In this document: positions 3,570 through 34,149 of the stretch, one piece after another
Numbering within the stretch: position 1 is the stretch's first letter
How the letters are laid out: each line of letters opens with the position of its first letter
NCBI GenBank assembly: GCA_008632985.1
Contig: QPGO01000031.1
Span: forward strand, 62,001-126,000
Length of the DNA stretch: 64,000 nt
Direction of reading: 5' to 3'
Source: Psammoneis japonica
Taxonomy: Eukaryota
Notes under the pieces: generated by a model
What the model was told of the DNA's origin: nothing
What the model saw: the letters and a program-made list of their open reading frames with translations, nothing else
Databases searched by the model: none
Translations under genes and position numbers: made by a program

Positions 3570-4478
3570 TTGTCATAATTTAATCCCCATGTTCAATGTT
3601 TGTGTCATCATCTGGAAGAACTTTCAACTGCAACTTCGCACTTCTGTCGCGCGGCAGATCGGCGCGCGGTGGCAAAAAACGAGGGGAGCACACTTCAGCA
3701 ATCAAAAATGTCAAGAGCACGACGGGCGACGACGGGCGACAGGGAACTTGTTAGAAAATCATCCGCATGACATTGAGGATGCGATTGATGTGCCAGAACT
3801 ACCAAGCCACATCGCAAGCATCTCGTGAGAGCTTGTCCAACATGGACCTTGCATCTCTCGCCCTCACCCCGAGCTGCCACATCACAGCAGGTTCACACAC
3901 TGGGTTCACACGCTGGGTTTCCACCTCCATGACGAAAGAAAGCAAACAAAAACTTCCACCCAAAACTTGTTGCAAAGCTGCAGACAAGCATGAATGGCAT
4001 GGTCTGTGTCAGCCATGACAAACACTGAGGTTTCCCTGTTTCATGGAGATGACAACGCCTTGTTTGAGCGACTTGTTTTTTGGAGATCAACCAGAGACTG
4101 GTTTGAGTTGGCAGACAATTTTGAAGAAGCAGGAATTGTTTTGCAAGGTGCACAATGGCTTTGACATGAGTCTCATTGCAGCCTGTGAGCAAGAAGACAT
4201 CAAGTGCCTCCATCAAGATCCTGGTGTCATCGTCAGGGACAAACTGAAGAAAGTCAGCAGCGCAGCAACCTTCTTCAATGCACAGCGAATCTTGGAACTC
4301 CAAAAGAGCCACGGATCTTAAGACACCCAAATTTTTGGGCATCAAAATCACAACAGAATTTTCAACGAGCCTGGAAAATTTGTCTGGAACTCATGCAAAG
4401 TCTTGTCCAGTTTCTGCAGAAATGTCAATGCCAAAACCAAAGTGGGCGTCAGCTCCAAAGAACTTTGATGGGGTCATG
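3570..4478. repeat. degenerate TpA-depleted repeat-like sequence flanking the copia element on the left (unidentified older element)
   Basis: TpA is rare and the ORFs are broken and Cys/His-rich. It lies outside the LTR. No recognisable domain. Confidence 0.45.
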
Positions 4479-4721
4479 TGACAGAAAATGAAGATGACTG
4501 GGTGGAAGAAAACAATGACTCCTTGCTGCTGTCTAAGCAGGATGAGTCTCCATGCAGAGACCATTGCAGGAGCCGAAAGACTGGTGTCATGATGTCGGCA
4601 CTGCTGCCATCATTCTTGTGAGCCGTGTGGCTCGAAAGCAAACTACTTCGCGCGTCGCGCGCAGAACTAAAAGCACACACAATTGTGTGTGACAAACTAA
4701 AATCTTGTTCAAATCCTGTCA
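4479..4721 (-). repeat. 3' LTR (243 bp)
   Basis: Direct repeat of 9791-10035. The PPT (ctcccc on the + strand) lies at 4722-4727. Confidence 0.93.
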
Positions 4722-4779
4722 CTCCCCAGTTTGCTTGAGGGACAACAGCAACAGATTCAAAGTCAGATTGGCAGGAAGC

Positions 4780-7300
4780 CTCTGGATCAAAGTTCCAAAA
4801 CATCAGGGGACGAAGGAGGGTCCACACCTGGGAGCAACCCCAGTGCTTGCTGAGAATGTCAGCTGGGTTGCGGGAGCCTTCGATGAAGTGAAACTTGAGG
4901 AAACCGGAAGCAATTGCCTCACGTACATGGTGGAACAAGAGGGCGGTGTGTCGCTTGTGTAACTTAGAGTGCGGGATGGTGGCACTATCCACAACCGACT
5001 TGTTGTCCCCGAACATGTAACAGGTTTCATGAATGTGGACGCCAAGGCAATGCAAAGTGATGCGCAGATCAATGATCTGCTCAACGCAGGTCCTTGCGGC
5101 AACAAACTCAGATCCACACATGGCAGTCTTGACTGTTGCTTGTTTCTTGGAGAACCAATCAACCGGAAACTTGTTGAGGAAATGCTGGTTGCCATTGCGT
5201 TCATCGAGAGCCAAGGCATGCTTGCAGTCCCAGGGCACTTCAAATCTGCACTTGCATCATGGTGTGGTGCAAAAGGAGCGCAGCTTGGCTTGGTTGGCCA
5301 TGCGGAATAGCTTCTTCTGGTGCTGAGCTATGGTCTGGAAACGTTTCCAGCCTTTGGTCTCAAGCAAGCCATGTTCACGTGCACAAATGGCACAGGTGAC
5401 GGCATCATCCTTGGCAATGATGGCAAGGGGTTCAGATGTGATCTCCCCATTCTCCCATTCAAGCATTGCATTGTGGCTTGAGCCTTTCCAAGATGGATCC
5501 TGAGGTCTCAATGGACCTTCATGAGAGACGATGCATTGGAACTTCCAGAGGGTAGAATCCTTGTCTTCTTGCTTGATGTGGTGCATGATGTCATTGCAGG
5601 CAAGAACTTCCTTGCATTCGTCATTGTTGACAGAGCAAATGAACTTGACCAGTTCAGGGTTGTCTCTGATTTCCCAATCATGGTCTTCAATGGCTTTGAC
5701 AATGCGGGCTCTGTGACGTTGTCCCCGTCCTCTTGCGGTTTCATGAGGAAGGTGCGTTCGATGACGTCCTCGGGCTTGAAGACTGGCATTTTGGGCATCC
5801 TGATTGCCTCCCCATCTGGTGAAGCCATTGAATCCAGAGGGTCATGTTGGGATTTGATGATGGTTTCAACAGATCCTTTGTCAGGAGGGTCAAGACGGAG
5901 GTTCAGAGCGGACGGGTCATGGGCGGAGCAGACGTTGGAATGGCAAAGAATCTTTTGAGTGTCATCAGAAAGAATCTTGAATGTCATTTCATGACCAACA
6001 TGTTTGGCAATGCCAGTGAAGCAACCACAAAGTTGTGGGATTTGGACGGCCAGTCAGAATCGTCCAAGTGGCAGCACACGGGCTCCCACCATTGGAAGCA
6101 AAGGAGCGGGCTGATGTGGGGGTAGAACCAGACAGTGCCTCAATGGGAGGAGGCCAATGTAGCTTGGTAGATGCAGTGTGGTTAAGCACAAAGCATGCGT
6201 GCACAAGGGCGAGGAGCCAGGTGCATGCGGGAGATCCAAAGCGATCCATGATTTTGTTGGCCATGGTTTTCACAGTCTGGCAGCGGCGCTCAGCAAAGTT
6301 CTGGTGCTGTTGGTGAGGCTTGCTTTGCCAACTAGAGATGAAGAGGGCACGAAGGATGCCAAGGACCTTGTTGCTCATGTCAACCTGGGCACGGTCGCTG
6401 ATGAGCTTGGAGGGAGCACCATGATTGCGGATGTTGTCCTCAAGTGTGTTGACGAATTCTTTGTCAGTCTTGGTGCCGCAGACGTTGGTGACAAGAGATT
6501 CCGCACCAACAAAGAGCTGTGCACTGACAGGCACACTGTGTCATGCAGTCAAAGGTGCAGCAAATAGTGTCCTTTGGGAGGAAGCCAAAACAGGGGCACA
6601 GAGACTCACAGTTGGGATCTTTGGCATTGATCTTGCGCTCATGGCATTCATGGAAGAAGTTGGACGTCGGAAGGAGGTGGTCATCCAGGACAGAGTCAGT
6701 GAGCATGGCATTGTTGACAATGTGGTGGTGACGACAGTTGCAAAACTCATCAAACAGGTTGGTGGTTGGGTCGTCTTGGAGGTCGGACACGGCGTCATGC
6801 CATGTTTCATTGTCAGTGAACTGATGGTCAAGGACAGACAGATCTCAGGTGTCATTGCCAGCGAGGACAACGTGAGGGAGTGTGTCCCATTCGGCGTTGG
6901 TGTGCAGTCGTGTGGCAATGTCAATGGGAACGACGCAGCCATCTATGGTGGCTGTGCGTTGTAGACCGTTGGGCACCTTGATGGACCTGTTGTTCACATC
7001 ATGTTTGCACCACTCAAGTTGGCCACAAGAACAGATGGTCTTGCCTTTGCCAGTGCAAGCGCACTGGTGAAGGATGGCAATGACGGGTTCACGCTGCGTG
7101 TGAATGACACCACCTGCAGTGACAATGGGAATGTCAACAAGCTGGTGGTTGTCAATGCCTTGTACGTCAACCTGACGACCAGTGCAATTGATGACACAAA
7201 CATCATCACCGGTGACACCGCTGTTTGCACCACGATCCACAAGAGCACCCTTGCAAGTTGAGGCATGAGTCAAGGCAGAGTAGATGACACTGTGATTGTC
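4780..7300 (-). pseudogene. pol: copia pol remnants (protease, integrase, RNase H) with stops and frameshifts
   Basis: ORF fragments 6845-7546, 5989-6534, 5257-5586 and 4474-5238 carry the copia motifs in PR-INT-RH order. Confidence 0.9.
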
Positions 7301-8931
7301 AGTGCAACAGCAAGTGTGGCCGTTGATCTCAATGTCAGTTTTGGTGTGGCGTGAGGATGAAGATCCGGGTGGCTTCTCGCCAGAGTGGGCGGAAGGGGGC
7401 CTTTTGGGCGTGAGAAGACATTGCAGATCACCGGGTGGCAAAGGCTTGCGCTTGGCAAGGTGAGCCAGGATGGGGCCAGCATCGGCTGGGTTGGCGGCAA
7501 CGTCAGGTGGTTCAGGGTTCAGGGGCAGACGCGAGGTCGTGAGCATTGGCTGACAAGTTCACGTCACCATCGCTGCCAAGACGGAGGTCGTGGAGGTTGA
7601 CTGCTGTTGAGTCATGATAATTGCCAGCATGAGCAGTGCGTGAACCAAGGATGATGGCCTTGGTGGACTGAGGCAAGGTGTCCCAGATGCGCTGGTGGTC
7701 CGGCGGGATGCGACGCCATTGTTCCTTGGTGAGGGAGTTGCCACAAGTCTGAGCAGCACAAGCCTGAAGGACGTCAACATCACTGTTGATGTCATGGGAT
7801 ACGTCATCATCAGGGTCGTCAGGAGCCAGGTCATGTTCACAGATGGCGCGGCGGGGGGCGTGTGAGGCTGTCTTGGGGTTGAACGTGCTGTCGCACTGTG
7901 CCGCTGCCAAAAGCAGGAGCCCACAGTGCTGCTCACAAGAAAGACCCGTGCCATTTTGCATGCAAAACTGATCAGCTTGATTCTTTACCAAACAAAGTTC
8001 TTTGACAGGGTGAACAGCATTCTTGAGCATGACGCATTTCTGGCCATCCGAAAAATGGTCCGTGTCGGGGATGAGAGCTTCGCACTTGCAAGCTGGTCCT
8101 GCCAGTGGAGTGTGAAGGCATGGGTGGAGCCTTTCCAAGTGCCATCACCAAGGCGAGTAGAGGTGAGGCATGTGAGAAGGCTCAAGGACTCCAGGGATGC
8201 ACAAGTGGACACAAGGGCGTACTTGGAAAGTTCAAGATGCACCGCTTGGGCATCAGAGGAGCCGACATGTTCATGAACAAGTGCCTTGCCCTTGTCATTT
8301 TGCAAGATGCATTCAAATGCGGCAAACATGCATTTTTGTTGTTCGGCAAACAAGGCCTTGTCCTCAGCTGTGTTGGGCTTGTACGTTGAGTCGAGGATGC
8401 GATCGACATCCTGAGAGCAGGCCTGTGCAATGATGGAGGTGTGCCACGTGTGCCACTGCTTGTCTGACTTGAGAGTCACAAAAGTGAGTGGGTCACGTTT
8501 GATGCCTCGCTTGAAGTCACGCACGGGGTCACATGGTTTTGGGGGCAACAAACCAGGAGCAGGAGCAGAAGGTGCCGTGCCCATGGAGAGGGACGCTGCG
8601 CACTTGGGGCTGAGATGACAGTTGGCAAACTCTTCATGTGTGAACAACGTGGGGTTGTTGCTGACATCAGCGCCGCTGCGTGCTTTAACCGTGTGCAAAC
8701 TAATCAAAGCAGCAATTTGTGCTTTGCAGCCATGGGGCAAAGGCGTTTGATTGGTGCCGTTGTTGTAAACTGGAGCATCGAGTTGCAACAGGGTAAACAT
8801 GAAGAGACCTGGTGCAAATCAGTGCCATCAATGCTGAGGGCGGAGCGCAACGGACTGTCTGCGGCTTGATTCAGAACAGTGCCTAAGATGCACTCAAAGC
8901 AATCAGTTTGTTGCTGTCTGGTGAGAACCAT
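7300..8931 (-). pseudogene. gag: copia gag remnants
   Basis: Fragments MVLTRQQQTDCFECILGTVLNQAADSPLRSAL, DFKRGIKRDP, DKGKALVHEH and LHWQDQL resemble diatom CoDi gag. Confidence 0.8.
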
Positions 8932-8989
8932 GGTGCAACTGATTGGGTGCCAGGACCAGAGTTGGAGAGTGGACTGGAGTTGGAGAGCA

Positions 8990-9052
8990 GACTTGAAATA
9001 ACTTGAGACTTGACTTGAAACTTGACTTGAAAAATTGACTTGAAAACTTGAA
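8990..9052. repeat. ACTTGA (TCAAGT) short tandem repeats in the copia 5' UTR
   Basis: acttgaaataacttgagacttgacttgaaacttgacttgaaaaattgacttgaaaacttga, just upstream of the gag ATG. Confidence 0.8.
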
Positions 9053-9790
9053 CTGTCTTGCAAGTCAGAAGCCGCCAGGTTGTGCCATCCCATTCACAGT
9101 CAATTGCCAAGCTTCCTGTCCGGTCTGTAGAGTTGTGCCGGCATGTCCAAACCCACAGCTGGTGACGCTTTGGGTTGCCTGAGAGCGGAGTGACAGGTTA
9201 AAAAAACCCTGCTGACAAGCCAACCAGAGGTGGACAAGACCTCCGAACCTTTCTCATTTTACATCGGTTGGACAACCCAATCAGGCCGGCCAGAATTGGC
9301 ACTGTGGAGGGACAAACAAACATGGGAAAAGCACCCTCACCCCAATGTGGACTAGAGTCATGAACCACTTCCTCTCACAGTTGTCCTTGTGGACCTTGTG
9401 GGACTGTAGAAGACCAGCAATCCGGTGCAGACAGGCAGCAGCAGACTTGGCGTGCTTGGAGCAGGACCAGAGTCAAGTGACAGTGTCATGTGCATGTGAA
9501 CACATGCAAATGTGTTGGTCTGTCTGTCAATGGGAGTAGAATCCGCTGTGAGGAATCCGGAATCTCAGAAGCCTGAGAATGCGGACATTCCTGACCAAAC
9601 AAATGTCCGTTGAACAAACACACGCAGCGATTGGACGCATTGGATGAATCCAAACACATGTGTCCAATCCAATGTTCAGCAGTGAAGAAGGTGGGTGTGT
9701 GCTTCCACTGCCAACGGTTCACGTCGTCGATTTTCTCGGTGACGATGATGAAGGCTCAATGGGTGAATGTGTTGGCCGAGACTGTCAAGC

Positions 9791-10035
9791 TGACAGAAAA
9801 TGAAGATGACTGGGTGGAAGAAAACAATGACTCCTTGCTGCTGTCTAAATGGCAGATGAGTCTCTGTGCAGAGACCGTTGCAGGAGTCGAAAGACGGGTG
9901 TTGTGACATCAGCACTGCTGTCATTGTTCTTGTGAGCCGTGTGGCTCAAAAGCAAACTACATCGCGCGTCGCGCGCGGAACTAAAAGCACACATAATTGT
10001 GTGTGATAAACTAAAATGATGTTCAAATCCTGTCA
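9791..10035 (-). repeat. 5' LTR (245 bp)
   Basis: Direct repeat of 4479-4721 with TGACAG/CTGTCA termini. Confidence 0.93.
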
Positions 10036-10860
10036 TGCAAAAACAAAGCAAAAAAGAAAGCCATGTGACTCTTGAAGACACAGCCATGCATTGCAATGAC
10101 TCAGACACACTGTGCCAACAAATGCAATGACAACCTCTTGCACGGTCTCTGAGGGTTTTAACTGTCGGCAGTCTCACAATCATTTGAGTGGCAGTGCTGA
10201 GCAAAAAAAAAGTGTGCAGAATGAAGTTGGAGTGCAGCTGACGAAAAAAGCAGTCAAAGGAGGTTGACAAATTTGCTCCAATGATGCTCTCATTCTGCAG
10301 AGTGATGAATGGAGCTCCTCCCTGGCTTGTGTCTGCCCTAGATTGATGGCAAAGGTGCAAGTGTGTTGCACTCAAATGTGAAATCAGAACAGTGTGTGAT
10401 GTTGCTTGTGATGAGTTTTTGTGGATTGCTTGGCCTGTTTGTTGCATCAAAAAGGCAAAACACAGTTGTCACAAGGTCAAAAATGAACTGCAAAATGGGG
10501 CAGTGCCACAAAATGCATTTTGTGTTGATGTCATTGCACGTCTTGGTGTTGAGAAAGGGCCACCAGCTCCCCACTCATTCGCTCGTCGCACCCAGAGTGA
10601 GCAGTCACGAGTCATCAACCCCACATGACCCACTCAACTCAAACGTTTTTGAAGCACCAGCTGGACTTTGACCCCCGCCAGATCCACAAAACATGAAAGA
10701 CATGAGCATTGTTGGTTTCCAACTCTTCAAAACAATGTTTTGCAAGAACACGCAACAAGCATGCACAGGACATGGCTGGCATCAGACATTTGGGGGTGAA
10801 TGTGACTTTTTGCAGAGCACCTTTGTTGCACGGGAAAGTGTGAAGGATGATTTTTAGTGA
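10036..10860. repeat. degenerate TpA-depleted repeat-like sequence flanking the copia element on the right
   Basis: Same dinucleotide signature as 3570-4478. It is probably the other half of the sequence into which the copia inserted. Confidence 0.45.
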
Positions 10861-11266
10861 TGGCTCCACAACTGACGCAACTCTCTACTTGTGACCCAAA
10901 AAGTTATCGGGAACTTCGTATGAGTGTGACATTGGTTGGTTCGAAATGCATTTTGGGGTGGTTTTGTGATTGCACGTGGAAGCATGGCGTTGGGCCCCAT
11001 TGCTGTTGGGAGTGGGGCAGGCAACACAAGCACGAGCAGTAGCATACTCTCTAAGTATGGACCATCTTGCCTGACTGTGACTCTCGACAGTGGTGCAGAT
11101 AGAGTTAGCGACTGACGCGTAAAAGGACCTCGAGACCTCTCGGCTAAAGAGATTATCGACAGAGAGTTTACCCAAAGTACCCAAAGTAGTACCAATTTGA
11201 AAGACCAAAAACGACAATCAAAGCAAAAGCTCATGCATTCCAAATTCCAAAAGACAATCTTATTAT

Positions 11267-12083: not shown

Positions 12084-13570
12084 ATGTCCCCTGCTGGAAA
12101 AAGTGTCTTTCGTCGTTCTCAGTCGGGTAGTGAAGAGACCTATTCCTCGTCATTTGCATCAGCATCAGCAGCAGCACCGAGAACAACCGGTGGTTTCTTT
12201 TCCAGCAGTCGTGATTTTTTGCCCATTTCAACAATGCGTTCCGAGTCCATGGCTTATCCTTCTTCGGGTTCCATGTCCATGATTGGAAAAGTGAACTATT
12301 ACATGAGGTTTCATTCACGAGCCATTCTGGCAACTTGTGCCTTTTTTGGTTTTGTTTTGATTCTCAGTTCTGATAGAATTCATGACGAAGTACGGCCGGG
12401 ACTGCGATTGTAAGTATACCTAGTACTGCAGTCAAGTGTGTTTTCACATCACTTGACTCTAGTTCACACTTTTCCTATAACATCTCTACTATTACAGGGT
12501 CAGACCCAGCACAGTTTCGAATTTCGGTGGCGCCATTCGCCCCGGCTACTTTCACATCAAGGACTCGGTCATGGACGATCACACGTTTCGCTTTGCTGCC
12601 GTGACGGACTTGGACCAGCTGAGCAAAGTCGAAGACTCTCGCAAGCCTCTCTTCAAGAGTGTCTTGTTACCGGGTACTATTACTAGAGACGAAAACAACA
12701 AGTATACGGTGAAATTTGAAAAAACGCGTGATTTGATTTCTCAACACAACGAGGCGGGACGAGGCATGGAATTGAGTGAGCTTACCATTTATCAGAACCG
12801 TCTTTTGAGTTTTGATGATCGTACCGGAACTGTTTATGAGATTCTCAATAAAAAGGCTGGCAAAGAGTCTTATGCGGTTCCTCGCTTTGTCATTACCGAA
12901 GGAGAGGGTGACACGGACAAGGGTATGAAGTGGGAATGGGCCACGGTCAAGAATGACGAGCTGTACATGGGCAGCATGGGTAAGGAGTATACCAATGCCG
13001 ATGGGTCCGTGGCCAACACGAACAACTTGTGGATTGCCGTGCTGAACGCATACGGTGAACTACGAAGGTTGGATTGGACCAAACACTTTAACTTTGTGAG
13101 AGCCAAATTGGGAGCGTCGAGCCCGGGGTACATTATCAATGAAGCCGTCTTGTGGTCGGATCATTTGCAAAATGGGTCTTTTTGCCAAGGAGAATCTCTT
13201 CGGAAAAGTATGACGAGGATCTGGATGAGAAGCGTGGTTCCAACAAGGTGGTTTTGGTCAATGACAAGTTTACCGACGCAGAGGTGGTGGATGTCAAAAT
13301 GGCCACTCTTGATCCACTCCACGGATTTTCATCCTTTGCCTTTGTGCCGGGAACACAGACAAGCACGCAATGGCCATTCGATCCGTGGAGGAGGACTGTA
13401 CCGGTGACATTAAGGACTGCAAACAGCGATCCTACTTTGTCATTTTCGATGTCTTGACGGGAGAAGTGCTCATGGATGAAGTCAAGTATGAACTCGATCT
13501 CAAATTTGAGGGATTGGAATTTGTTGATATTTACACCAAGGAACCGCACGTCACCACCAACAAGGACTAA
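12084..13570 (+). CDS. Ca2+-activated nucleotidase / apyrase (CANT1 family) with an N-terminal anchor; intron about 12410-12497; two apparent -1 frameshifts (about 13170 and 13358)
   Basis: Motifs VTDLDQLS, GRGMELSEL, FDDRTG, KGMKWEW, GSMGKE, KWVFLPRR, GFSSFAFVPG and KFEGLEF are spread over three frames. GTAAGT...ACAG intron. Confidence 0.9.
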
Positions 13571-13911: not shown

Positions 13912-14271
13912 ATTGCACGTCTGCCAAATAGTTTGCCTCTGCGATGCAGTAATTCTTGGAGAGTTTGGATGAATGATTTTGTGCAGTGAGACGGGAAGAG
14001 CGCCCAAGTATGGCTACAGTACATAGAAAAGAAGCTTGCTGTCGCTGTCTCTGTTACTGTCCTGCAAGATCACAACGGAACGAACCCAAGGATTGCACGT
14101 CTGCCAAATAGTTTGCCTCTGCGATGCAGTAATTCTTGGAGAGTTTGGATGAATGATTTTGTGCAGTGAGACGGGAAGAGCGCCCAAGAATGGCTACAGT
14201 ACATAGAAAAGAAGCTTGCTGTCGCTGTCTCTATTACTGTCCTGCAAGATCACGACGGAACGAACCCAAGG
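13912..14271. repeat. tandem duplication, 2 x 180 bp
   Basis: 13912-14091 and 14092-14271 differ at only three positions. Confidence 0.95.
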
Positions 14272-14648
14272 ATCTTCCACACTTCGGTCTAAAATCTATA
14301 GTGCGCCTTCCTCGGGTTTGATATTTTGACCGTCGCTTCCAGGAACCATGAGTACTCATCCTTTCATTGCCATGATGCATAGGCAACTTTTTATGCTGTG
14401 TCTTTTCTGCCTCAATTGCCCGTCTTTGCCTGATTTGAGTGTTTTGTTTGTGACCAACCCGCCGCGAACTCATATCAAAAGTCAAACACTATCAGGTCCT
14501 CTACTAGCTAGAGGCCCTCTAGAGTAGCTCATCTACAGCAGCTACAACTGAAGTAGAGAGTTGCTTTCTATGTGACATTACTTTTTAAGTCGTTGTACGA
14601 TCTCCATCACCCTCAATGTCCTCTAACTAGACAACGTTTGTCCTAGTC

Positions 14649-16944: not shown

Positions 16945-19182
16945 ATGCCAACATGGTTGTGAAATCCGAATTCTGTTTCGGTGAGTGTGACACCAATTTA
17001 AATTGCGGAAAGTTCACACTATGTGCTGAATTTCGACGGTTAGTAGGAATCATATGTAGAGTCCACGGGTCTTTGTCTCAAAGTTGCGGTAAAACGAGCA
17101 AAAGAACGTTCCAAAGCCGGTTTGGTGTGGTTCAAACACGTCATTGCATTCAATCAAGGTAGATCTGTACTAATACCGACGTAGCAATGAGAAAGCTCAA
17201 TTTCCATTTGAATTTGACCATTGATGAAGATGCAGTTTGGTTCTTCGTGTCAGAAACGCCATCACATGCCATCACTATGCTATCTACATCTGTTAGAGCA
17301 ATAATACCATGGGAGGGTCTTTTTGGGTGATACCATTGATGCGTTGAAAAGTACAGAACATCGATAGTAAGAATTGCAGATTCCAGATTCCAAAAAATCA
17401 TCCAACACATCCAGTTTTCATTCATTTCTCGCTCTCAGTTCATTCCCGCCTGATCATCATCTGTTATCTGTTGATTGTCACCATCACAAGAGAATTGAGT
17501 GCGCCAAGCACCTTGCCATGATTCGACGTACTGTACCATACATTTTACAAAAATCAAAGAGAAGCACCATGAAACTGTTCTCGACACTTTGCCAGTGAGA
17601 AAGGCCACAACTCGGCCTTGCGACTTGCGGCCTCGGGCGTTGTTCCAAACAACGGCGACCGGACAGGTAAATCAGCGCCTTTTCGGTGTAACCAAGAGTT
17701 ACGCCAGAAGATGTACCATTGCATCTATACTCTGTACTGGTACCATTGTTTGGCGTTTCATTGTCTACCGGCTGGCTTTGACTTTGAAGTGCGCAGCATC
17801 GATGCCACGAATTCGGCACTGTGGCGGAAGCAAGGCTTTCAACGGAGAAACTTCCCCCGTCGTTTGCCGTGGTCATCATTTGTGGAATTGAAGACCTCCG
17901 TCACACTGTTCCCATATACTGATGTAATCAACGAGTTTGATCGGGCCTACAGACATCTTCCGAGATGAGACAATCCACATACCCAAGCAAATCCTTACGA
18001 TCAGGCGTTGGACAATGGGTGTGCCGGTATACTAACTTATTGCTCCATTTAAACTTGGACTGCCCGGGGCGTTTCTTCAAGAACAACGAGACATGTGCAT
18101 GCATACCTGTATAGAAGCCGTATCGCCCGAGTCATACTGACCTCGCAAGTCGAGGCGACCCCCTCCGTTCCCTCGTCATGCTCTCGGTTGGCTTACTAGT
18201 CCTCGAGAACCTACCATGTGTATCAGGGTCTTGATAATGGGATGTTGTTGACGTTTTCTTTCATATTTACAAGTTTGAATTAAAACGCTCCCTGTCGTCT
18301 GAAAAGGTAGTGGGGTGAGCGTGTCGAGTCTGCACGCGTGTCGACTGCTGCTTACTACGTACGACAAGTGAAGCAGTCTCAAACTCCTTTGGACAGCAGT
18401 TGTGTCCTTGTCAGGCTGGAGCAGGAGTCGAATGTTTTGATTTTGGAGCGACAAAGGAAGGAGTCACCCTGTTCTTGTGCAGATCGGTTCCGGCTAGAGC
18501 CAACTTCAGGGTTTCTTACGATGTTGTTTCAGGTGCAGAATCAAGCAGCGAGATTAGTCACAAACGCGGAAAGTGAGAGTATCTCCGCGTAATAGCGTTG
18601 GCGTCTTGGGCCCTACGTTCAACGTGGCGTCTATCCATTTTTTGCACGTCGCGAGCGTGACGATCAGGAAGGGACACGATTGATTATATTTGTTATAATG
18701 CCACCAACAAATGTGCTGGCATTATCGTGCGGCTGGGAATTTCGCCCGAGCGATTGCGACCACTGCACTGCACCTGATGCAGGCACTGCAGCAGAAGGCG
18801 ATATTGTGGAAGCGTTCCGAACGAAATGCTCTAGAGACAAAATTGACTGCTGTCGTCAGCACCAATAACTGAAGTCAGCATCATGGGGTGGCATTTATTC
18901 CCGTTTCCTAACTTCTCACGCCACCTCCCCGGGACTAAAAACAATCTTGGCAAATTTGGCAGTCAAATCCCTAACCTTAAAAAGTTTCTGTCGACATTCC
19001 CACACTGGCCCGACAAAACTCTGGTTTTCTCTTGATGCTGCTTCAAAGCTCACTTATTTATGCCGTACAAAACACTCAAGATTCTTTCAAAGAGAGAGAG
19101 ACGCAAGGCGCAACTGCGTGCTCACCATACTATACTGGCAGCAATACAGAAACGGAAATGTTGGTTGTACATACTCCTCTAT

Positions 19183-19325
19183 CTACTAGCTAGAGTAGCT
19201 AGGTCTAGAGAGAGCTAGCTACTACTACTACCTCTAGAGAGCTACCGGTAGTAGTAGATAGAGTAGCTAGAGTATTAGTAGAGTATTAGTAGTAGATAGA
19301 GTAGAGAGAGCTACTCTAGCTAGGT
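19183..19325. repeat. TAG/CTAG/AGCT-rich low-complexity island
   Basis: ctactagctagagtagctaggtctagagagagctagctactactactacc... Related islands lie at about 14497-14560, 47170-47354, 51665-51722 and 63155-63190. Confidence 0.85.
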
Positions 19326-19951
19326 ATTGATCATGGGCGGGCGTGTGTCCTCCAATGGTCTATTCTGGCGGCGCGCGGGCGGGCGCATGGCATGGCTGGC
19401 GATGGCGCTGGCTGGCTAAGTCTGAGTCTTGCCAGCGTTTTTCTACCGTCGATAGTGTGGATTAATAAGTCCTAAGAATCGAATGTTGCATTTGGTAAAC
19501 TACAGGTTTGTAACATACAATTACGAAGTGAATATAACGCATATTTTCCAAATGTTGAAATTTCAAATATTTAGTTTTACTATCATTTAGGAGCGTTACA
19601 TATATATCCAAATATTTTTCAGATCTGGTATTACATAGTGACCGAATTTTCGCGCAACGTGCGTTGAACGACAAAAATGGTGAATTTTCCGGCACATAAA
19701 TATCTATGTCTGTATAAGGCAAATCTGGTACGATTGCTACGGTCTGTGTACAGAAAAATAATTTTGTGCAGTGACTGTGCGCCATTCGGGACAAAGAAGC
19801 GAGCACCGCATTTTATGTAACTGAAAATCAAACTGGGAGTCACCAACAGAGGTGATAGAAGGTCGTGTATCTGCGACGATTGCGAAACACGATAGAGCGA
19901 ACAAGAAGCGAATAAGCAATTGATTAGGGAACGAAATGAGACAGAGCGCAA

Positions 19952-22900: not shown

Positions 22901-25900
22901 GATAGCGAGGTATCACCAGAGCAAGATGAAAAGGATGGTCAAGAAAGCCAAGAGTTTTCCGAGGAGGAGGAGGATGTCGAAGATGACAGCTCTTCTAACG
23001 CTGGCTCCAGCGGTTGGTCAAGCGGCGACATGATGTCTGACGATGTAGATTCGAAGGAAGAGGGTGCTCAAGCATTACTTTCTGAGCAATCGGCTCTTGA
23101 TGGCGCGACATCGCGAACTATGCCCACTGGAGCAGGCGGTGGTGGAAGTGATGGCTTATCGGGAGGCGCTATAGCTGGAATTGCCGTAGGGGGTGCCGCT
23201 CTGGTTGGAGCAGCTGCGGTAGGCGCCGCTGCTCTACGAAAAAAGGACTCAGAAGAGAGCCAAAGCGAAGAAGAGCCAGGGAGTCTTGCATCTACAAGTC
23301 AATCGGACGAGGCTGATTCTCAAGTTGATTCCGAATCAGAATCACCGAGTGGCTCAGAATCAGAGTCACCGAGTGGCTCGGAATCAGAGTCACCAAGTGG
23401 CTCGGAATCCGTTTCACAAAGTGATTCAGAAGAGAGTGGGAGCTACAGCGAAGAAGAGTCAGGAAGCTGGGCTTCCGAAAGTCACCCCGAAGAACCCATG
23501 CAGGCCGCGTCAGTTGCGCCCAGATCGTACCCTGATGGTGGGGGAGGCGGCGGCGGAGGAGGAGGAGGTGGAGGAGGAGGAGGTGGAGGAGGAGGCGACG
23601 GTGGTTTATCGGGTGGTGCCATTGCTGGAAGCGCCGTTGGTGGTGCGGCTGTCGTAGGAGCCGCCGCTGTGGGAGTTGCTGCGTTACGTAAAAGCGATTC
23701 GGAAAGAAGTGACAGCATCAGCGAAGACGAATCTGGAAGTTTTGCTTCCACTAGTGAATCAGAAGCAGATACCATGGGCGTTTCAGAAGCTGATACTGGC
23801 GCCGCTGCTGCTGGTCCGGAAAGTGAATCAGAAGAAAGCGGAAGCTATAGCGACCAGTCTGGAAGTTGGGCGTCTGAAAGTCATCCAGATGAATCTATTC
23901 AGGATTCCGGGTTATCCGGGGGTGAGATTGCGGGTATAGCTGCAGGAGGCGCAGCTGGTGCCGGAGCTGCGGCTGTTGGTGCTGCTGCATTGCAAAGAAG
24001 TGATTCAGAAGAAAGTGAAAGCCAAAGTGTCAGTGAAGATGACTCGGGGAGCTTTGTTTCAACTAGTCAGTCGGAAAATGATGCTATGGGGGATTCGGAA
24101 GCGGATACGGGTGCCGCTGCTGCTGCACCACAAGGTGAATCAGAAGAAAGTGGAAGCTACAGCGACGAAGAATCAGGTAGTTGGGCTTCCGAGAGTCAAC
24201 CGGAGGAAATGGTAGAGGCGCAGGAGCCAATGCAAGTCGCATCAGCCGCTCCAAGAACAGTTCCCACTGGAGGAGGCGGAGGTGGCGGAGACGGTGGTTT
24301 ATCTGGAGGCGCCATTGCTGGTATTGCCGTTGGTGGAGCTGCTCTTGTCGGCGCCGCCGCTGTCGGTGCTGCTGCGTTACGCAAGAGTGATTCAGATAGA
24401 AGCCAAAGCCATAGCGAAGAAAGTGAAAGTGAGAGCGAAGACGAATCTGGGAGCTGGGCGAGTACCAGCGAATCAGAAGCGGATATAATGGGAGATCCGG
24501 ATGAAGTTCAACCTGAAGATGCTGATAAAGCCACAGCTGGCGGGGCAGTCCCAATAACCCCAACAAGTGAGTCTGACCAGGATTCTGAGCCAGATTTGGC
24601 GTCAGAGTCGGGAAGTGAATCGTACAGCCACGAATCCGAAGCTATGAGCGCCGAAGCGGAGTCAGTGTCTGAAGATGGTGCGAGTAGAGAACACGACGAA
24701 GATGAGTCGTCATACGAACCATCCGAATCAGAAGGAGACAGTGAGGGCTACATTGACGAGGACGCGGAAGAATCTCAATATGAAAGCCGATCGATGGATG
24801 TGGAAAGCTCAGAAGGAGTGGGTGACTGGCAGCAAGCCCCTGCAGTCCCTAGCGGAGGTGAAAGTGGTTTATCAGGAGGCGCCATTGCGGGGATAGCTGT
24901 CGGTGGTGCAGCGGCGGTAGGAGCCGCAGCTCTTGGCGCGGCTGCGCTGCGAAGACGTGATTCAGATGAAAGCGCCAGCGAGCACGAGGACGAAAGTATG
25001 GCGTCTAGTAGCCGCTCGGAAAACATGGTTTCAGATAGTGGGTCCGAAGGTTATGGCGATAGAGAGCGCAGCGTCGGTGAGGGGTCCACCTCTAAATCTG
25101 ATGTTACCGACAATACCTCAGATGCTCAGAAGCGAGCAGAATACCGCGCGGAGGTGGAAGCGTTGGTGAGAATTGTTGTTCCTGACGAAATCGAAAACGT
25201 GGATGTTGTCATGTCGCAGTTTCGTGGTCGCGAGGCAGAACTGGTGGCAACGTTGAGGACCATGCAGGAACGAACCATCACTCAACGTGCTCGTGCCGCC
25301 GTGCACAAAAGTAGGCACAAACCCGAGAGTAGACCAAGTAGAGGACCACTTGCAGCCCGAGGAGCATCGCCCTTTTCGAGTATTTCGGACAGTGGATCAG
25401 TGCACTCTCGCGGTTCTACTGCAGGCTCAGCGATTGTTGCAGCAGCCAGCGTTCCTCGGCCGTCGGCTCGACGGCCATCAGCGAACGATCCGAGTGCAGA
25501 GTCCTTCTTCTCGGAATCAGTATTTACAAATGACAGCTACAGCTATCCTGAGGGGTCCGAGAACAGATCCACGTTCCGAAGTGTTAGCAGCGGAAGTGAG
25601 GGAGTTCTCGGACGACTGAACGTGACAGACAGCGAGAGTGATAGCGAAACAGACAGTAGCGAGGACAGCAGTGAGAGTTCCACTGGAGACTACATTCCTC
25701 AGACAATGAGAGAAGGCGGTAGTATAAGTGAAGAAGACGAAAGTGAATCTGCCTCCGGGAGCGGGTACAGCCCGGGGCGAAAGAAAGGCAGTAGTAGTGA
25801 GTCTGACAGCAATCCCAGTGACTACTTACAGCAAGAAAGTTCAGGATCCACTGGTTTGAAATCAGAGGTGATCAGTGAAGTAACACCTAGCTCGGTGTCA

Positions 25901-25990: not shown

Positions 25991-26375
25991 CCGCAAACGC
26001 AACCCCCCTTCATCCAGACCTACCGTACATTTTGGTTCAACAAGTGCTAGTCTAGTTAAGAAATGCAGAAGGGGTTAAACGTAGTTTTAAAAGTTAATAA
26101 GTCGGTATGTGTGTACGCTAAAACGCAAAACACTGGGTGTGAAACAAAGCTCACACCGCCCCCCCCGCCGTCACGCTGGAAAATCTTTAGAGACGATTTA
26201 TACGTGAAAGTATTACGGCAATCGTCGTAGAAAAGACATTTGAAAAAAGATTGTGAGGCTCGTGCTTTTGCTCGAGAGCACAACGACAGCAACAAACAAC
26301 ACGACGGCTGATATCTTTCACAACTCACAACCCTGGTGTATGGTATTGCCAACAGCCACAGCAGCACGCTTTACG

Positions 26376-28397
26376 ATGAGCACCAACGAGAACTCCTCTA
26401 CTCTAACTGCTGAAAATGCTTCACCACCACCGAAAGCAGCAGCGATAACATCGGCAACCAAGACGCCAGAACCGTCTCAGAAGCCCGTTGCAGATGTCCA
26501 TGTCATGGAGAAGCCGAGCCCAGACGACGTCTCTCTTCCACGCATCAAGCCTCAATCGGCTATAAGGGACAAATTTGGCCTTACGAATACGTCGCAAACG
26601 GCGAAAGAGCCGAGTGTGTCTAAGACGGCCAGTACTACCGGCCCTACCGGTACCGCTGGTACTCCAAAGACGATCGTTCAAAATTCAGCTGAGTCTGCTG
26701 CAGGGGCGATGGTTGCTGCTGCACTTTCGAATTATGTTAGCACAACTACCGCTGAACCTGAGATCATAGCAGTGAAGGCACCGGCTACAAAATCAGACAA
26801 TGCAGAAATTGCTCCCATGGAAGAAAAAGAGAAAGCACCGGCTGCAAAAGCGGACAAAGCAGAAACTGCTCCGGCGAAAGAAAGCGAGTCTACCGTTGTG
26901 CCTGTCTCCACGGCGGCGAAAGCACCAGCCGCAATATCAGACTTGGCAGAAATTGCCCCCGCAAAAGAAAGCGAGTCTACCTTCGCGCCTGAGTCCATGG
27001 CGGCGAAGGCACCAGCCGCAATATCAGACGGTGCAGGAAGTGCTCCAGCAAAAGAAAACGAGTCGTCTACGGTTGCGCCTGAGTCCAACGCGGCGAAGGC
27101 ACCAGCGGCAAAAGCGGACAAACCACAAATTGCTCCAGCAAAGGAAAGCGAGTCCACCGCTGTACCTGAATCCATGGCGGCGAAGGCACCAGCCGCGAAA
27201 GCGGACAAACCAGAAATTGCTCCAGCAAAAGAAAGCGAGTCCACCGGTGCGCCTGAGTCCATGGCGACGAAGGCACCAGCCGAGAAATCAGGCAGTGCAG
27301 AAATTGCTCCCGCAAAAGAAAGCGAGTCCACCGGTGCGCCTGCGTCCATGGCGACGAAGGCACCAGCCAGTGCAGGATCTGCTCTAGCAAAGGAAAGCGA
27401 GTCTACCGTGGCGCCTGAGTCCATGGCGGCGAAGGGACCAGCCACGAAATCAGACAAGGCAGAAATTGCTCCAGCAAGAGAAAACGAGTCGTCTACCTTG
27501 GCGCCCGAGTCCATACCGGCGAAGGCACCAGCTGCGAAATCAGACAGTGCAGGAACTGCTCCAGCAAAAGAAAGCGAGTCTGCCGCTGCGCCTGAGTCCA
27601 TGGTGGCGAAGGCACCAGCCGCGAAATCAGACAGTGCAGAGATTGCTCCCGCAAAAGGGAGTGAGTCTGCAGCTGCGGCTGAGACCATGGCGGCAAAGAA
27701 GCCAGCTGCAAAATCGGATAAAGCAGATCCTACTCACTCAAAAGAAACAATTACTGCTACCGTGTCGTCGCCCGCTGGCAAATCTCGTAAGCGTAAAAAG
27801 CAAGGTACGTGTGCCATTCAGATTGTTTTGGCGGTTCTGCTTAATTTCTCAGAATTACTCATGAGAGCTCTGTTTATATTTGATAAAGTTGCTTCTAAGT
27901 CCGTTCTTACTGGAAAGGTAGAAACAGACACGACCATGCGAAATGAGTTGAGTGGGTCTTCCAAGAAAAAGAAGCAGAAAACGTCGCATGATGGTGCCGC
28001 AGAAGCCGGTAAGAAAAAGAAGAAAAACAAAAAAGTGGCACACAAGTCGGTTTCTATGAAGTCGGACAAAAAGAAGGCGAAGGTTAAGAAACCATCTCCT
28101 CCAGCTAAACCAGCCAAGAAGTCCATTTCTCCAAACGGTCGTCCAAAAGCCAAGGAGATTGAGAGTGGACCGCCAACTGAAGTTCTGCCTGGTGGATTAA
28201 CCTGGCCAGAGGGTTGGATTCGCCAAACGGTTCTACGCGTTTCGGGTGCAACCAAGGGCACAACTGACAAGTACTGGTACTCGCCACAGACGAACAGGAA
28301 GTTTCGTTCCATGGTACAAGTCGCCAAATTCTTAAAAGCGTTACAGACGACAGGAGGCGACGAAAAAAAGGCGTGGGAGGTTATGAAGTCGGGTTGA
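26376..28397 (+). CDS. methyl-CpG-binding-domain (MBD) protein with Ala/Lys/Pro/Glu tandem repeats and a Lys-rich basic tract; possible in-frame intron 27805-27888
   Basis: The C-terminus WPEGWIRQTVLRVSGATKGTTDKYWYSPQTNRKFRSMVQVAKFL fits the MBD consensus (GW.R...R.SG...D.YY.SP.G.KFRS). Confidence 0.85.
   Translation: MSTNENSSTLTAENASPPPKAAAITSATKTPEPSQKPVADVHVMEKPSPDDVSLPRIKPQSAIRDKFGLTNTSQTAKEPSVSKTASTTGPTGTAGTPKTIVQNSAESAAGAMVAAALSNYVSTTTAEPEIIAVKAPATKSDNAEIAPMEEKEKAPAAKADKAETAPAKESESTVVPVSTAAKAPAAISDLAEIAPAKESESTFAPESMAAKAPAAISDGAGSAPAKENESSTVAPESNAAKAPAAKADKPQIAPAKESESTAVPESMAAKAPAAKADKPEIAPAKESESTGAPESMATKAPAEKSGSAEIAPAKESESTGAPASMATKAPASAGSALAKESESTVAPESMAAKGPATKSDKAEIAPARENESSTLAPESIPAKAPAAKSDSAGTAPAKESESAAAPESMVAKAPAAKSDSAEIAPAKGSESAAAAETMAAKKPAAKSDKADPTHSKETITATVSSPAGKSRKRKKQGTCAIQIVLAVLLNFSELLMRALFIFDKVASKSVLTGKVETDTTMRNELSGSSKKKKQKTSHDGAAEAGKKKKKNKKVAHKSVSMKSDKKKAKVKKPSPPAKPAKKSISPNGRPKAKEIESGPPTEVLPGGLTWPEGWIRQTVLRVSGATKGTTDKYWYSPQTNRKFRSMVQVAKFLKALQTTGGDEKKAWEVMKSG
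26770..27725 (+). repeat. coding minisatellite, about 10 units of roughly 90 bp (AKAPAAKSDxAEIAPAKESESTxAPESMA)
   Basis: Repeated gcgaaggcaccagc...gctccagcaaaagaaagcgagtc units. Confidence 0.9.
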
Positions 28398-32794: not shown

Positions 32795-32799
32795 CCCCC

Positions 32800-32830
<31 letters not shown>

Positions 32831-32840
32831 ACACACACAC
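32795..32840. repeat. poly-C run followed by a (CA)n microsatellite
   Basis: About 22 C followed by about 12 CA/AC units. Confidence 0.9.
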
Positions 32841-33599
32841 CCAGCACCAAAGGCACCACTGACATGACTGCCACTGTGTCTTCTTTGTGACATGGCCTGC
32901 CTTTGGACACCACTCCATTCTGCTGCCTTGCCACAATGCATTTGTTGTTTGTGGGCTGTCCTCCAGCAGCAACATCTTCTGTTTGGATGTTTGAGAGGGG
33001 CTGCCAATGCTCAAGAAACTTGACAACCCCACTTTTCTATCTGCTGCTTTGTTGACCATGCAAAAGAACAGCATTTGTGGCAAAGGCACTGGCCTTGGCT
33101 GCTTGCACCACCCTCTGTCTTGTGCTCTGTCATTTGAGTCTGCCAAGGACTGCAGGCACCTCATCACCCAACACCTGTTGGAGTGTCAAGCCACGGCTCG
33201 CCAACTGGCACATGCTTGTCTGACTGACCCCAAACTCACCACACAGCTTGCAAGCATGTTCCCAACAGCTGCCATTGACTGCCACTGCTGTCATGTTGAC
33301 TGGGCGCAGAAGCCAAAAAGTGAGCACAAGACCTCACCAACAACTCAACAAGAGCCACAAACACAAATTCATCATGTCGTCAACAATTGTCAGTGTGTCC
33401 TGTGTCCTGTGTGAAAAATTGTCTGTCTGTCATGCAAAAACTGCCTCACACCTTGATGTTCCAACACACTCCTTCACACAAGCCATCAATTGATTGGCCT
33501 CATGTGCCACTGACTGCAGGAGGTGGAAACCATGCCAGCCAACCAATCATGCCACTTTGACTGCTTCACCAATCAATGTGGACAACATCATCTGACTCC

Positions 33600-34140: not shown

Positions 34141-34149
34141 TGCAGTGTG

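Follow-up and report, generated by a model that had tools for sequence, protein, structure and literature searches.

Apparent TpA hypermutation with methyl-CpG decay in dead mobile elements of the diatom Psammoneis japonica

Dead mobile elements in the diatom Psammoneis japonica appear, as judged from their sequence, to have undergone TpA hypermutation together with ordinary decay of methylated CpG, and the same TpA signature has just been described in Bigelowiella natans. The signature was analyzed in a 64-kb stretch of contig QPGO01000031.1 (64,000 nucleotides, here called the window).

Depleted islands in the window

The preliminary description of this DNA had dealt with a single region, a copia element in which TpA is scarce between flanking genes of normal content, and this scarcity is borne out. 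Island 1 (3582-10854) has 51 TpA where 442 are expected from its base composition (rho 0.12) and 268 at the window background rho of 0.60 (Poisson P = 2e-59); the minimum among 178 background 1-kb windows is 0.35. Its borders are sharp within tens of bases, TA density being normal through 3581 and again from 10855, in agreement with the limits first given (3570-10860), and a gap of about 95-180 bp separates them from the adjoining genes. Inserted DNA is thus depleted and host genes are spared, as in TpA hypermutation of the B. natans type. The depleted zone is wider, however, than the LTR-bounded element (4479-10035), and the accompanying loss of CpG (rho 0.52) and rise of CpA (1.70) and TpG (1.64) had been overlooked, as had two further islands, of which the one at 30183-36767 is far more extreme. 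GC content is scarcely altered (0.506 in island 1 versus 0.477 in the background). The features are as follows:

3582-10854, unstranded: island 1, nested pair of dead elements, depleted of TpA and CpG and enriched in CpA and TpG
3582-4478, unstranded: left part, older insertion interrupted by the copia element; 3 TpA versus 60 expected, rho 0.05; CpG 0.60
4479-4721, minus strand: 3′ LTR, Ty1/copia, with TG...CA ends; 89.7% identity with 9791-10035; TpA rho 0.25, CpG 0.72
4795-8641, minus strand: degenerate gag-protease-integrase...RNase H coding region in several frames, from alignment to P0002
9791-10035, minus strand: 5′ LTR of the copia element; 15 substitution events relative to the other LTR
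10036-10854, unstranded: right part, older interrupted insertion; 2 TpA versus 60 expected, rho 0.03; CpG 0.28
30183-36767, unstranded: island 2, TpA and CpG almost wholly lost; 6585 bp with 5 TpA, rho 0.01; CpG 0.12; CA 1.81, TG 1.97
36279-36674, minus strand: open frame whose feature profile, from Atlas matches, resembles reverse transcriptase (a lead only)
about 48030-50500, plus strand: island 3, partial depletion, two long overlapping frames; TpA rho 0.28 (minimum 0.14), CpG 0.84

The element inside island 1 has a Ty1/copia layout, with two LTRs ending in TG...CA and collinearity with an 1881-aa polyprotein, broken where about 400 aa of reverse transcriptase (RT) are deleted. In the closest relative, P0002, residues 102-1337 correspond to 8641-5188 and residues 1739-1871 to 5193-4795; RT is deleted at the break, at about 5188/5193, which the earlier account of the element had not noticed. 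GGGGAG, which resembles a polypurine tract, lies directly upstream of the 3′ LTR on the minus strand. No target-site duplication is recognizable around the copia element, its degraded frames gave no Pfam match at E<=0.01, and a Pfam search of 3582-4478 gave none either. As in the "CoDi" groups of diatom Ty1/copia elements (Maumus et al., 2009, PMC2806351), the carrier here is Ty1/copia. The nearest relative with a name belongs to the diatom Fistulifera solaris (P0007, a Ty1/copia protein) and is annotated as a Ty1/copia-type RT; unlike the CoDi elements, the present copy is dead, with RT deleted and frames broken. In a term search of the accessible text of Maumus et al. (2009), TpA, RIP, hypermutation, dinucleotides and deamination were all absent.

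Island 2, which shows no similarity to island 1 in sequence comparison, is probably a very old retroelement and may extend to 37051. For the frame at 36279-36674, 22 of 30 Atlas matches fall in clusters with RVT_1 in 10-28% of members (best score 0.95), and neither a Pfam match nor a sequence homologue was found. The frames of island 3 belong to no Pfam family and are composed of 1.2-1.4% Tyr and 4.1-6.3% His; this island may be a target at an early stage or else a gene of odd composition. Elsewhere in the window, an MBD-domain protein is encoded at 26244-28397, and therefore methyl-CpG reading is probably present in Psammoneis japonica.

Direction and context of the changes

What has replaced the missing dinucleotides? 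In three unrelated islands, the numbers of TA and CG lost are close to those of CA and TG gained (424/482 in island 1, 592/616 in island 2 and 68/71 in island 3), and the remaining twelve dinucleotides stand at background. The two strands are both affected: CA/TG counts are 714/796 for island 1 and, for island 2, 786/762, and Tyr->Cys occurs 20 times and Tyr->His 9 times (binomial P = 0.06). No flanking-base preference around the changed TpA sites could be established, and no strand-coordinated tracts, a possible trace of a processive single-strand deaminase, were found.

The coding frames point the same way. Peptides earlier read as bearing Cys or His in place of Tyr are present in minus-strand frames, TAMCGSEF, LHCLGV, KHWGCSQ and CKCRFEVPWDCKHA within 4474-5256 and AERRCQT and CTWLLALVHAC within 5989-6540, and the reading holds against real relatives: P0002 has 40 Tyr in the alignment, of which 19 are matched in the window by Cys, 9 by His and 2 by Tyr, and at 12 columns with Tyr in at least 70% of at least four long relatives the window reads Cys at 9, His at 1 and Tyr at 2. 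The Cys/His rate at the P0002 positions (28/40) compares with 96/2553 (3.8%) pooled over 76 ordinary relatives (Fisher P = 1.6e-29). The ancestral element thus had Tyr codons, and TpA was lost by TA->TG and TA->CA, that is, A:T->G:C on both strands. In contrast, conserved Asn (12/12), Gln (16/16), Ile (17/19) and Lys (14/18) are retained, and therefore A outside TpA has been spared. AA/AT/TT rho values are 1.18/0.87/1.14, versus 1.12/0.92/1.16 in the background. Polymerase eta, whose WA motif comprises A->G at both TA and AA, had been offered as a candidate and was rejected, since ApA is not depleted (rho 1.18-1.19 versus 1.12).

CpG loss with gain of TpG/CpA runs through islands 1, 2 and 3 (CpG rho 0.52, 0.12 and 0.84), and of 26 conserved Arg, 16 are retained while 5 read as His, 4 as Cys and 1 as Trp, with Arg->Gln also seen. 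CpG->TpG/CpA in the same intervals and Arg->Cys/His/Gln/Trp in pol frames are as in the methyl-CpG decay of silenced transposons. Such decay is unable to remove TpA, and the TpA component here is faster and is missing from most relatives.

Relatives, copies and timing

Far from being as TpA-poor as the window copy, 76 of 78 metagenome relatives of the copia element have TpA rho values of 0.50-0.99, and therefore the family is not intrinsically TpA-poor. CpG decay alone is found in many diatom copia relatives: L051, L010, L054, L019 and L008 combine CpG rho of 0.13-0.22 with TpA of 0.51-0.74, and in L051, L048, L057 and L054 Arg is lost and Tyr retained, so that CpG decay and the TpA process can be told apart. 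One metagenome contig, L002, is an exception, with 3 TpA in 2766 bp and Cys or His at 19 of 35 Tyr positions; at sites shared with the window the outcomes are concordant at 4 and discordant at 4, and L002, its outcomes being unrelated to those of the window, is thus a second, independent case. Protein predictions of different origin (P0064, P0100, P0118, P0088, P0066 and P0067) bear the same signature.

As for timing, the 15 events between the LTRs comprise 4 CA<->TG doubles, 4 CA/CG, 2 CA/TA, 2 other transitions, 2 transversions and 1 complex event. LTRs are identical at integration, and the CA<->TG doubles therefore indicate that some changes arose in integrated DNA. Depletion is stronger in the interrupted outer element than in the copia element within it, and a contig of the other haplotype differs from the window in 3582-4478 by TG/TA at 3710 and CA/CG at 3923. 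On the other hand, the copia family is abundant (3753 contigs with at least 90% similarity in run X1). For copies with a similarity of 90% or higher, a total of 50 places with G>A or C>T was reported versus about 217 lost TpA, and at the 37 island sites listed other copies have TA at 3 and CG at 10. Since most TG/CA states appear to be common to same-genome copies, much of the loss would predate the window copy. Mutation in situ thus stands for the part that arose in integrated DNA, but much TpA loss seems to be common to close copies in the same genome; change in situ at the window locus appears to account for only part of the loss.

Targeting of repeats in the RIP sense finds no clear support: the copia family is highly repeated, but the most depleted parts of island 1 are present in about 1-4 haploid copies in run X1, the summed depth over 3582-4478 and 10036-10854 being 63-250 versus about 55-65 per haplotype, with 3582-4478 at 63-96, the single-copy level. 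Run X1, the only sample containing the sequence, may be the source data of the window assembly. With this proviso, its short k-mer contigs at single-copy depth (55-86) reproduce the window without a single difference across 414, 431 and 585 bp in 7156-7569 and 10008-10993, those over 10008-10993 having a depth of 65-86. A base-calling artefact had been named as a danger. Methylated motifs can give systematic miscalls on some long-read platforms, and confinement to one sample would fit an assembly or base-calling error at modified bases. Given the X1 contigs, the recurrence of the signature in the unrelated metagenome assembly L002 and in the six protein predictions, and LTR and haplotype differences that obey the same rule, such an error is scarcely credible.

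A candidate mechanism and its alternatives

Literature searches retrieved no report of TpA hypermutation in diatoms, as the preliminary description had stated, but its claim of novelty needs qualification, since a 2026 preprint describes the same signature in B. natans. There, TpA->TpG/CpA hypermutation of integrated viral DNA was measured de novo (Mettrop et al., bioRxiv 10.64898/2026.01.13.699255): according to the available part of this preprint, mutation-accumulation lines had 231 mutations in their hypermutable regions, of which 230 were A->G or T->C, each of these at TpA, with a rate near 6e-7 per site and generation; reverse-transcriptase and DDE domains are over-represented among TpA-poor coding sequences, and the Discussion argues for a TadA/ADAT-type preference for U/T before the edited A. 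The likeness, as far as that part goes, extends to TpA->TpG/CpA only, on two strands, confined to inserted DNA, with TpA loss coupled to gain of CpA and TpG. B. natans is a chlorarachniophyte (Rhizaria), whereas the present host is a diatom; its targets are NCLDV and virophage inserts of moderate depletion (rho 0.45 for NCLDV), whereas LTR and other retroelements here approach zero; the part of the preprint seen has no CpG component, whereas CpG decays here too; and its events were measured de novo, whereas ours are deduced from sequence.

Fungal RIP in ascomycetes similarly makes dinucleotide-specific transitions in set segments, saturates, wrecks transposon frames and leaves sharp borders. 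It acts by C->T at CpA, creates TpA and AT-rich DNA, and requires duplicated sequence. Here TpA is destroyed and CpA enriched, which led to its rejection; moreover, GC is 0.506 versus 0.477, and low-copy segments are affected too. ADAR hyperediting and TadA/ADAT deaminases share the A->G outcome. ADAR edits double-stranded RNA in several contexts, including ApA, and in a retro-copy its changes would be confined to one strand, the transcribed one; changes here lie strictly at TpA, on two strands and in chromosomal DNA, and ADAR-type hyperediting of a retro-copy was rejected on the first two grounds.

On balance, a locus-restricted TpA->TpG/CpA process on inserted, inactive integrated DNA, parallel to methyl-CpG decay and likely due to adenine deamination, is probably responsible. 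In such DNA, A:T->G:C transitions would arise at TpA on either strand while methylated CpG decays in the ordinary way to TpG/CpA (in principle, one enzyme could account for the loss of CpG as well, in place of 5mC). The process would act on integrated DNA, halt at insert borders and accumulate over time, so that island 3 would have just started, the copia element would have lost about 80% of its TpA, its older host element about 93% and island 2 about 98%, with TpA decaying about 2-5 times faster than CpG. Coding capacity would be destroyed through Tyr->Cys/His and Arg->Cys/His/Gln/Trp. The most likely chemistry would be enzymatic deamination of adenine preceded by T, TadA/ADAT-like deaminases preferring U/T before the target A, and it would be silenced or foreign chromatin, not repeats as such, to which the enzyme is directed. 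The milder depletion of the LTRs (TpA rho 0.25-0.34) than of the interior (0.12), despite their common history, counts against this explanation, as do the TG/CA states apparently common to close copies and the lack of a flanking-base preference and of strand-coordinated tracts.

Could the signature instead have been inherited, through ADAR- or APOBEC-style editing of RNA or cDNA before integration or non-autonomous amplification of an edited ancestral copy, with little or nothing happening in situ? The abundance of the family, the TG/CA states common to close copies and the exact coincidence of depleted zones with insert borders would all follow, but this is rather unlikely: an RNA or minus-strand cDNA substrate should give one-strand asymmetry, whereas gains of CA and TG are nearly equal; ApA is untouched, unlike in ADAR hyperediting; LTRs that were identical when inserted differ chiefly by CA<->TG, CA/CG and CA/TA; within island 1, depletion is greatest in the outer element, which is interrupted and of low copy number; the unrelated island 2 is depleted further; and the B. 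natans process was observed in chromosomal DNA (bioRxiv 10.64898/2026.01.13.699255).

A by-product of an epigenetic mark or of repair, in which a 5hmU- or J-like thymine (TET/JBP) mispairs with G or T:G repair (MBD4/TDG- or Vsr-like) is recruited to methylated DNA and yields T->C at TpA, is doubtful to a greater degree. 5hmU is capable of mispairing, and Vsr at CTAG sets a precedent for T:G-directed repair. TpA and CpG loss share exact intervals, as expected if both follow silencing marks, the MBD-domain protein of the window would suit such a route, and dinoflagellate 5hmU is reported to be enriched in repeats and to silence transposons (PMC11572971). Yet many diatom relatives have strong CpG decay and normal TpA, so methylation by itself is insufficient; no TET/JBP or glycosylase gene was seen within the 64-kb window; the accessible portions of the 5hmU papers, including PMC11572971, mention no TpA preference or mutational consequence; and a repair bias would need prior mismatches and be slow. 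Selection on elements to avoid UpA and CpG and so escape RNA-directed restriction, after the manner of RNA viruses, for which joint suppression is described in the part of the source seen (PMC3829696), is close to refuted: conserved Tyr and Arg are destroyed, RT is deleted and frames are broken, the non-coding LTRs and outer element are equally or more depleted, and 76 of 78 relatives are undepleted.

With TpA-directed change of inserted, inactive DNA as the preferred reading, nearly every TA and many CG in these dead diatom elements would have been turned into TG or CA, with the adjoining genes left intact.

Composition, borders and anatomy of the depleted islands

The preliminary description had reported a TpA-poor block in normal surroundings, and this is clearly present at 3582-10854 (island 1): it contains 51 TpA, against 442 predicted by base composition and 268 predicted at the window background observed/expected ratio (rho) of 0.60 (Poisson P 2e-59), and rho(TpA) never falls below 0.35 in the 178 background 1-kb windows. 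Its borders are sharp: at 3581/3582 and at 10854/10855 the change in TA density is complete within some tens of bases. CpG is halved in this island (rho 0.52), CpA (1.70) and TpG (1.64) are raised, and the remaining twelve dinucleotides, including ApA, ApT and TpT, are at background level. A sliding dinucleotide profile of the window revealed two further islands, of which island 2 (30183-36767, with a possible extension to 37051) contains only 5 TpA in 6585 bp (rho 0.01), with CpG rho of 0.12 and CpA/TpG of 1.81/1.97, and island 3 (~48030-50500) is weaker (TpA rho 0.28, CpG rho 0.84). Relative to background, the deficit of TA plus CG matches the surplus of CA plus TG in all three islands (424/482, 592/616 and 68/71 in islands 1, 2 and 3), and thus the change is {TA, CG} to {TG, CA}, consisting of transitions only and symmetrical between the two strands. 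It is restricted to inserts. The island borders show neither target-site duplications nor terminal inverted repeats, and Pfam matched nothing in the sequence flanking the copia element of island 1 or in the degraded frames of the three islands.

Features of the islands
4479-4721 and 9791-10035: LTR pair of 243/245 bp with TG...CA ends, 89.7% mutual identity
48048-50824, + strand: two long overlapping frames of 441 and 507 aa, no known family; Tyr 1.2-1.4%, His 4-6%

The interior of the LTR-bounded copia element lies on the minus strand and is collinear with Ty1/copia polyproteins. Its closest relative polyprotein, P0002 (1881 aa), aligns through aa 102-1337 with 8641-5188 and then through aa 1739-1871 with 5193-4795. 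The gap corresponds to a deletion of about 400 aa of reverse transcriptase, and the reading frame is interrupted repeatedly. Over the matched part, identity is 58% to P0007, a Ty1/copia protein from the diatom Fistulifera solaris. The depletion runs 897 bp and 819 bp past the LTRs into non-LTR sequence of no recognisable family (3582-4478 and 10036-10854), which is TpA-poorer still than copia (rho 0.05 and 0.03). The simplest reading is that copia was inserted into an older insert that was already decaying. The frames in 48048-50824 may belong to a young mobile element that has only begun to lose TpA, and include a stretch, HSFRVGSADD, that may resemble a tyrosine-recombinase box. An Atlas feature match makes 36279-36674 a tentative reverse-transcriptase candidate; a sequence search gave no homologue.

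Other features of the window
12481-13407: apyrase ORF; best named matches 65-78% identity, diatoms only (Attheya, Skeletonema, Eucampia, Thalassiosira, Detonula, Grammatophora), none near 100%
13912-14273: 182-bp unit in direct tandem duplication, 98.4% identity
19940-25990, + strand: uninterrupted open frame of 2016 aa; internal repeats 23415-24970; Glu 9.9%; no Pfam family
26244-28397, + strand: ORF of 717 aa with a methyl-CpG-binding domain (PF01429, E 2.6e-09) at its C-terminal end
52012-52920 and 53505-54389, + strand: neighbouring RING-H2 finger ORFs of 302 and 294 aa, same domain layout

The apyrase matches identify the host as a diatom missing from the protein collection, and not Bigelowiella natans; a chloride-channel ORF and the Atlas were uninformative on the taxon. 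The pair of RING-H2 ORFs looks like a local gene duplication. The ORF with the methyl-CpG-binding domain adjoins the island 2 region at a distance of ~1.8 kb; it is Lys/Glu-rich and carries a long internal tandem repeat (26831-27727, ~87-bp register, 77-81% identity). Short intergenic stretches (18501-19500, 46501-47500 and 63001-64000) have rho(TpA) of ~1.0 and GC down to 0.42-0.44, and probably mark promoter or intergenic DNA, the opposite extreme to the islands.

Direction, context and timing of the change

Since the metagenome relatives are only 64-76% identical at the DNA level, too distant for a site-by-site DNA spectrum, the change was polarised at the protein level. The peptides in which Cys or His had initially been read in place of Tyr were all found in minus-strand frames, and the conversion holds for 28 of the 40 aligned Tyr positions of P0002, at which the window reads Cys 19 times, His 9 times and Tyr twice. 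In the 12 columns where Tyr is conserved (in 70% or more of a minimum of 4 long relatives), the window has Cys in 9, His in 1 and Tyr in 2. Conserved Arg is kept at 16 of 26 positions, the others being His (5), Cys (4) and Trp (1), and other conserved residues are largely kept: Asn 12/12, Gln 16/16, Ile 17/19 and Lys 14/18. For a control, the best 80 of 439 confirmed metagenome matches were taken, representing 78 distinct loci, all 78 of which matched P0002. Pooling the 76 ordinary loci of this set gave 2553 Tyr positions, of which 1712 are occupied by Tyr, 10 by Cys and 86 by His; the share of Cys or His is thus 3.8%, compared with 70% for the window (Fisher P 1.6e-29). Tyr in the relatives where the window has Cys or His indicates that the ancestors had TAY codons. 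The change is A to G at TpA, on either strand, with A in other contexts spared, ApA included, so the TpA bias assumed in the preliminary description stands.

A runs test on the order of CA and TG gave z of 0.55, 0.95 and -1.45 in the islands versus -1.0 to -2.9 in the background, and thus no sign of strand-coordinated tracts left by processive one-strand events. Among the residual TpA of island 1, 31 of 51 have C before or G after, versus 39.8% (P 0.004); the outcomes at Tyr sites give no consistent rule of flanking-base preference.

The two LTRs of a retroelement are identical at integration. Those in the window differ by 15 substitution events and 4 gap columns, the former comprising four adjacent CA/TG doubles, four CA/CG and two CA/TA differences, two other transitions, two transversions and one complex change. 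A CA/TG pair requires an ancestral TA or CG resolved oppositely in each LTR, so that 10 of the 15 events fit the rule. These ten arose in DNA after the LTRs separated; some of the change thus occurred after integration. The TpA remaining, computed from rho versus background, is ~47% in island 3, 20% in island 1 and 2% in island 2, and the CpG remaining is ~87%, 54% and 12%; the order of islands is identical in both decays, and per site TpA decays ~2-5 times faster than CpG. The consistent island order, the faster loss of TpA and the deeper depletion of the outer element than of the inner one are signs of a process that acts cumulatively on resident DNA.

Comparison with copies at least 90% identical showed 132 differing places (112 transitions, 18 transversions), and among the 37 island places listed, other copies have CG at 10 and TA at 3 where the window has TG or CA. 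Places of the G>A or C>T kind number 50 in all against ~217 lost TpA, so most of the TpA loss is common to close copies and predates their divergence. This sharing runs against a purely local origin of the loss. Already-mutated, non-autonomous copia copies seem to have kept multiplying.

Relatives and read evidence

The relatives are not equally TpA-poor: in 76 of the 78 metagenome loci (best 80 of 439), rho(TA) is 0.50-0.99. Depletion among these 78 is seen only in loci L002 (0.02) and L006 (0.33), to which all ten windows below 0.3 belong among the 1042 1-kb windows of the same best-80 set. As the loci were picked by score, which disfavours degraded copies, two in 78 is no frequency. Several relatives combine strong CpG depletion with normal TpA (L051, 0.13; L010, 0.16; L054, 0.19; L019, 0.20; L008, 0.22; likewise L018 and L057; rho(CpG) of the whole group 0.13-0.26), and in L051, L048, L057 and L054 Arg is replaced by Cys, Trp, stop, His or Gln with Tyr retained. 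CpG decay is therefore common in the copia family; it is the expected footprint of transposon methylation. As judged from these sequences, CpG-only decay occurs in other diatom lineages, and the TpA process is an extra, lineage-restricted component beside it.

L002 is a 2766-bp metagenome contig with a copia fragment that has 3 TpA, CpG rho of 0.44 and Cys or His at 19 of 35 Tyr positions. It is equally distant from the window and P0002 (55%, 54% and 56% amino-acid identity), and the outcomes in L002 and the window show no relation at the Tyr sites they share (both Cys 3, both His 1, one of each 4). L002 is an independent occurrence of TpA loss. Tyr to Cys changes in conserved motifs are also found in six proteins predicted from other collections (P0064, P0100, P0118, P0088, P0066 and P0067).

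The reads come from one sample of one study (runs X1-X3, Logan contigs), which may be the source of the assembly and so is not independent; no RNA runs containing the stretch were listed. Depth in the unique flank is ~55-65 per haplotype and ~105-120 where both haplotypes coincide. Contigs at haplotype depth are identical to the window over 7156-7569, 10008-10438 and 10409-10993 (0 differences), with which a long-read base-calling artefact, the possibility raised at the outset, is hard to reconcile. A contig over 3041-4313 differs by four bases, those within the island being one transversion, TG/TA at 3710 and CA/CG at 3923; this hints slightly at segregating variation of the {TA, CG} to {TG, CA} kind. 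This region is covered by that single alternative contig, and X1 has alleles near half depth (48.8 of 105.1) at 2599, 2602 and 2612 and small indels at 2571 and 2595. The sample therefore appears to be heterozygous or diploid, and the haplotype carrying copia may be hemizygous. The copia family is very abundant, with 3753 contigs at at least 90% identity and a summed depth of ~9e4 over the LTRs.

Mechanism and significance

A preprint on mutation-accumulation lines of Bigelowiella natans reports 231 mutations in two regions of integrated viral DNA, of which 230 are A to G or T to C, all 230 at TpA, at ~6e-7 per site per generation in some lines only; an ADAT2-like DNA adenine deaminase is the authors' proposal (Mettrop et al., bioRxiv 10.64898/2026.01.13.699255). 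Since the signature in the window equals that of these lines, we infer an enzymatic origin of the TpA change. The most likely chemistry would be deamination of adenine at T-A steps within silenced chromatin. The label "repeat-targeted" is not supported, as the parts of island 1 with the strongest depletion have a copy number close to one and the NCLDV target in B. natans is likewise single-copy (Mettrop et al., bioRxiv 10.64898/2026.01.13.699255).

Other sources of the pattern can be weighed against this chemistry. Polymerase eta, an initial candidate, is argued against by the sparing of ApA, and RIP by the opposite direction of its change. ADAR-type editing of an RNA intermediate fits poorly with the alteration of both strands in a single context, and selection with the destruction of conserved residues and the equal effect on non-coding parts. 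A mark-dependent route is a possible alternative, for example hydroxylation of thymine, known from dinoflagellates, or biased T:G repair of methylated DNA. In dinoflagellates, 5hmU is enriched in repeats and silences transposons (PMC11572971); the 5hmU papers examined, in the parts consulted, give no TpA preference. No deaminase or TET/JBP domain or gene was found among the window ORFs. Returning to adenine deamination, it is conceivable, though rather improbable, that a dedicated genome defence acting at the DNA level is common to diatoms and chlorarachniophytes, in which a TpA-specific adenine deaminase (TadA/ADAT-like or new) would be guided to silenced insertions, edit both strands in situ faster than methyl-CpG decay and erase transposons and integrated viruses with GC content unchanged. 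Such a defence would be the counterpart of fungal RIP on the adenine side and might be ancestral in the SAR supergroup.

The observation made in the preliminary description is confirmed and its interpretation partly supported. Its statement that no description in diatoms was known still holds; the B. natans preprint is the only report of TpA to TpG/CpA hypermutation in the full-text literature searched, whose coverage stops short of subscription journals and the newest papers. No paper there combines TpA, CpA and TpG with diatom. RIP, dinucleotide, hypermutation, deamination and TpA are all absent from the accessible text of the classic diatom retrotransposon paper (PMC2806351), and likewise, together with CpG, from that of a 2025 diatom transposon preprint. 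The signature is the same as in B. natans and is found here in a second supergroup lineage (Stramenopila), with retrotransposons rather than integrated viruses as its targets; here it has gone to saturation and overlies CpG decay. The 2026 preprint lowers the claim to novelty; the finding is still of clear interest.

The diatom islands and the unrelated environmental contig L002 suggest that the process is not a curiosity of a single species, and TpA hypermutation may serve more widely among eukaryotes to inactivate inserted DNA. Where diatom gene sets list TpA-free, Tyr-less, Cys/His-rich "proteins", these are probably transposons that were hypermutated, and the decay of TpA and that of CpG together act as two clocks for the age of insertions. 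The process might also endanger transgenes in such diatoms, and the enzyme and its choice of target become testable in a group with genetic tools.
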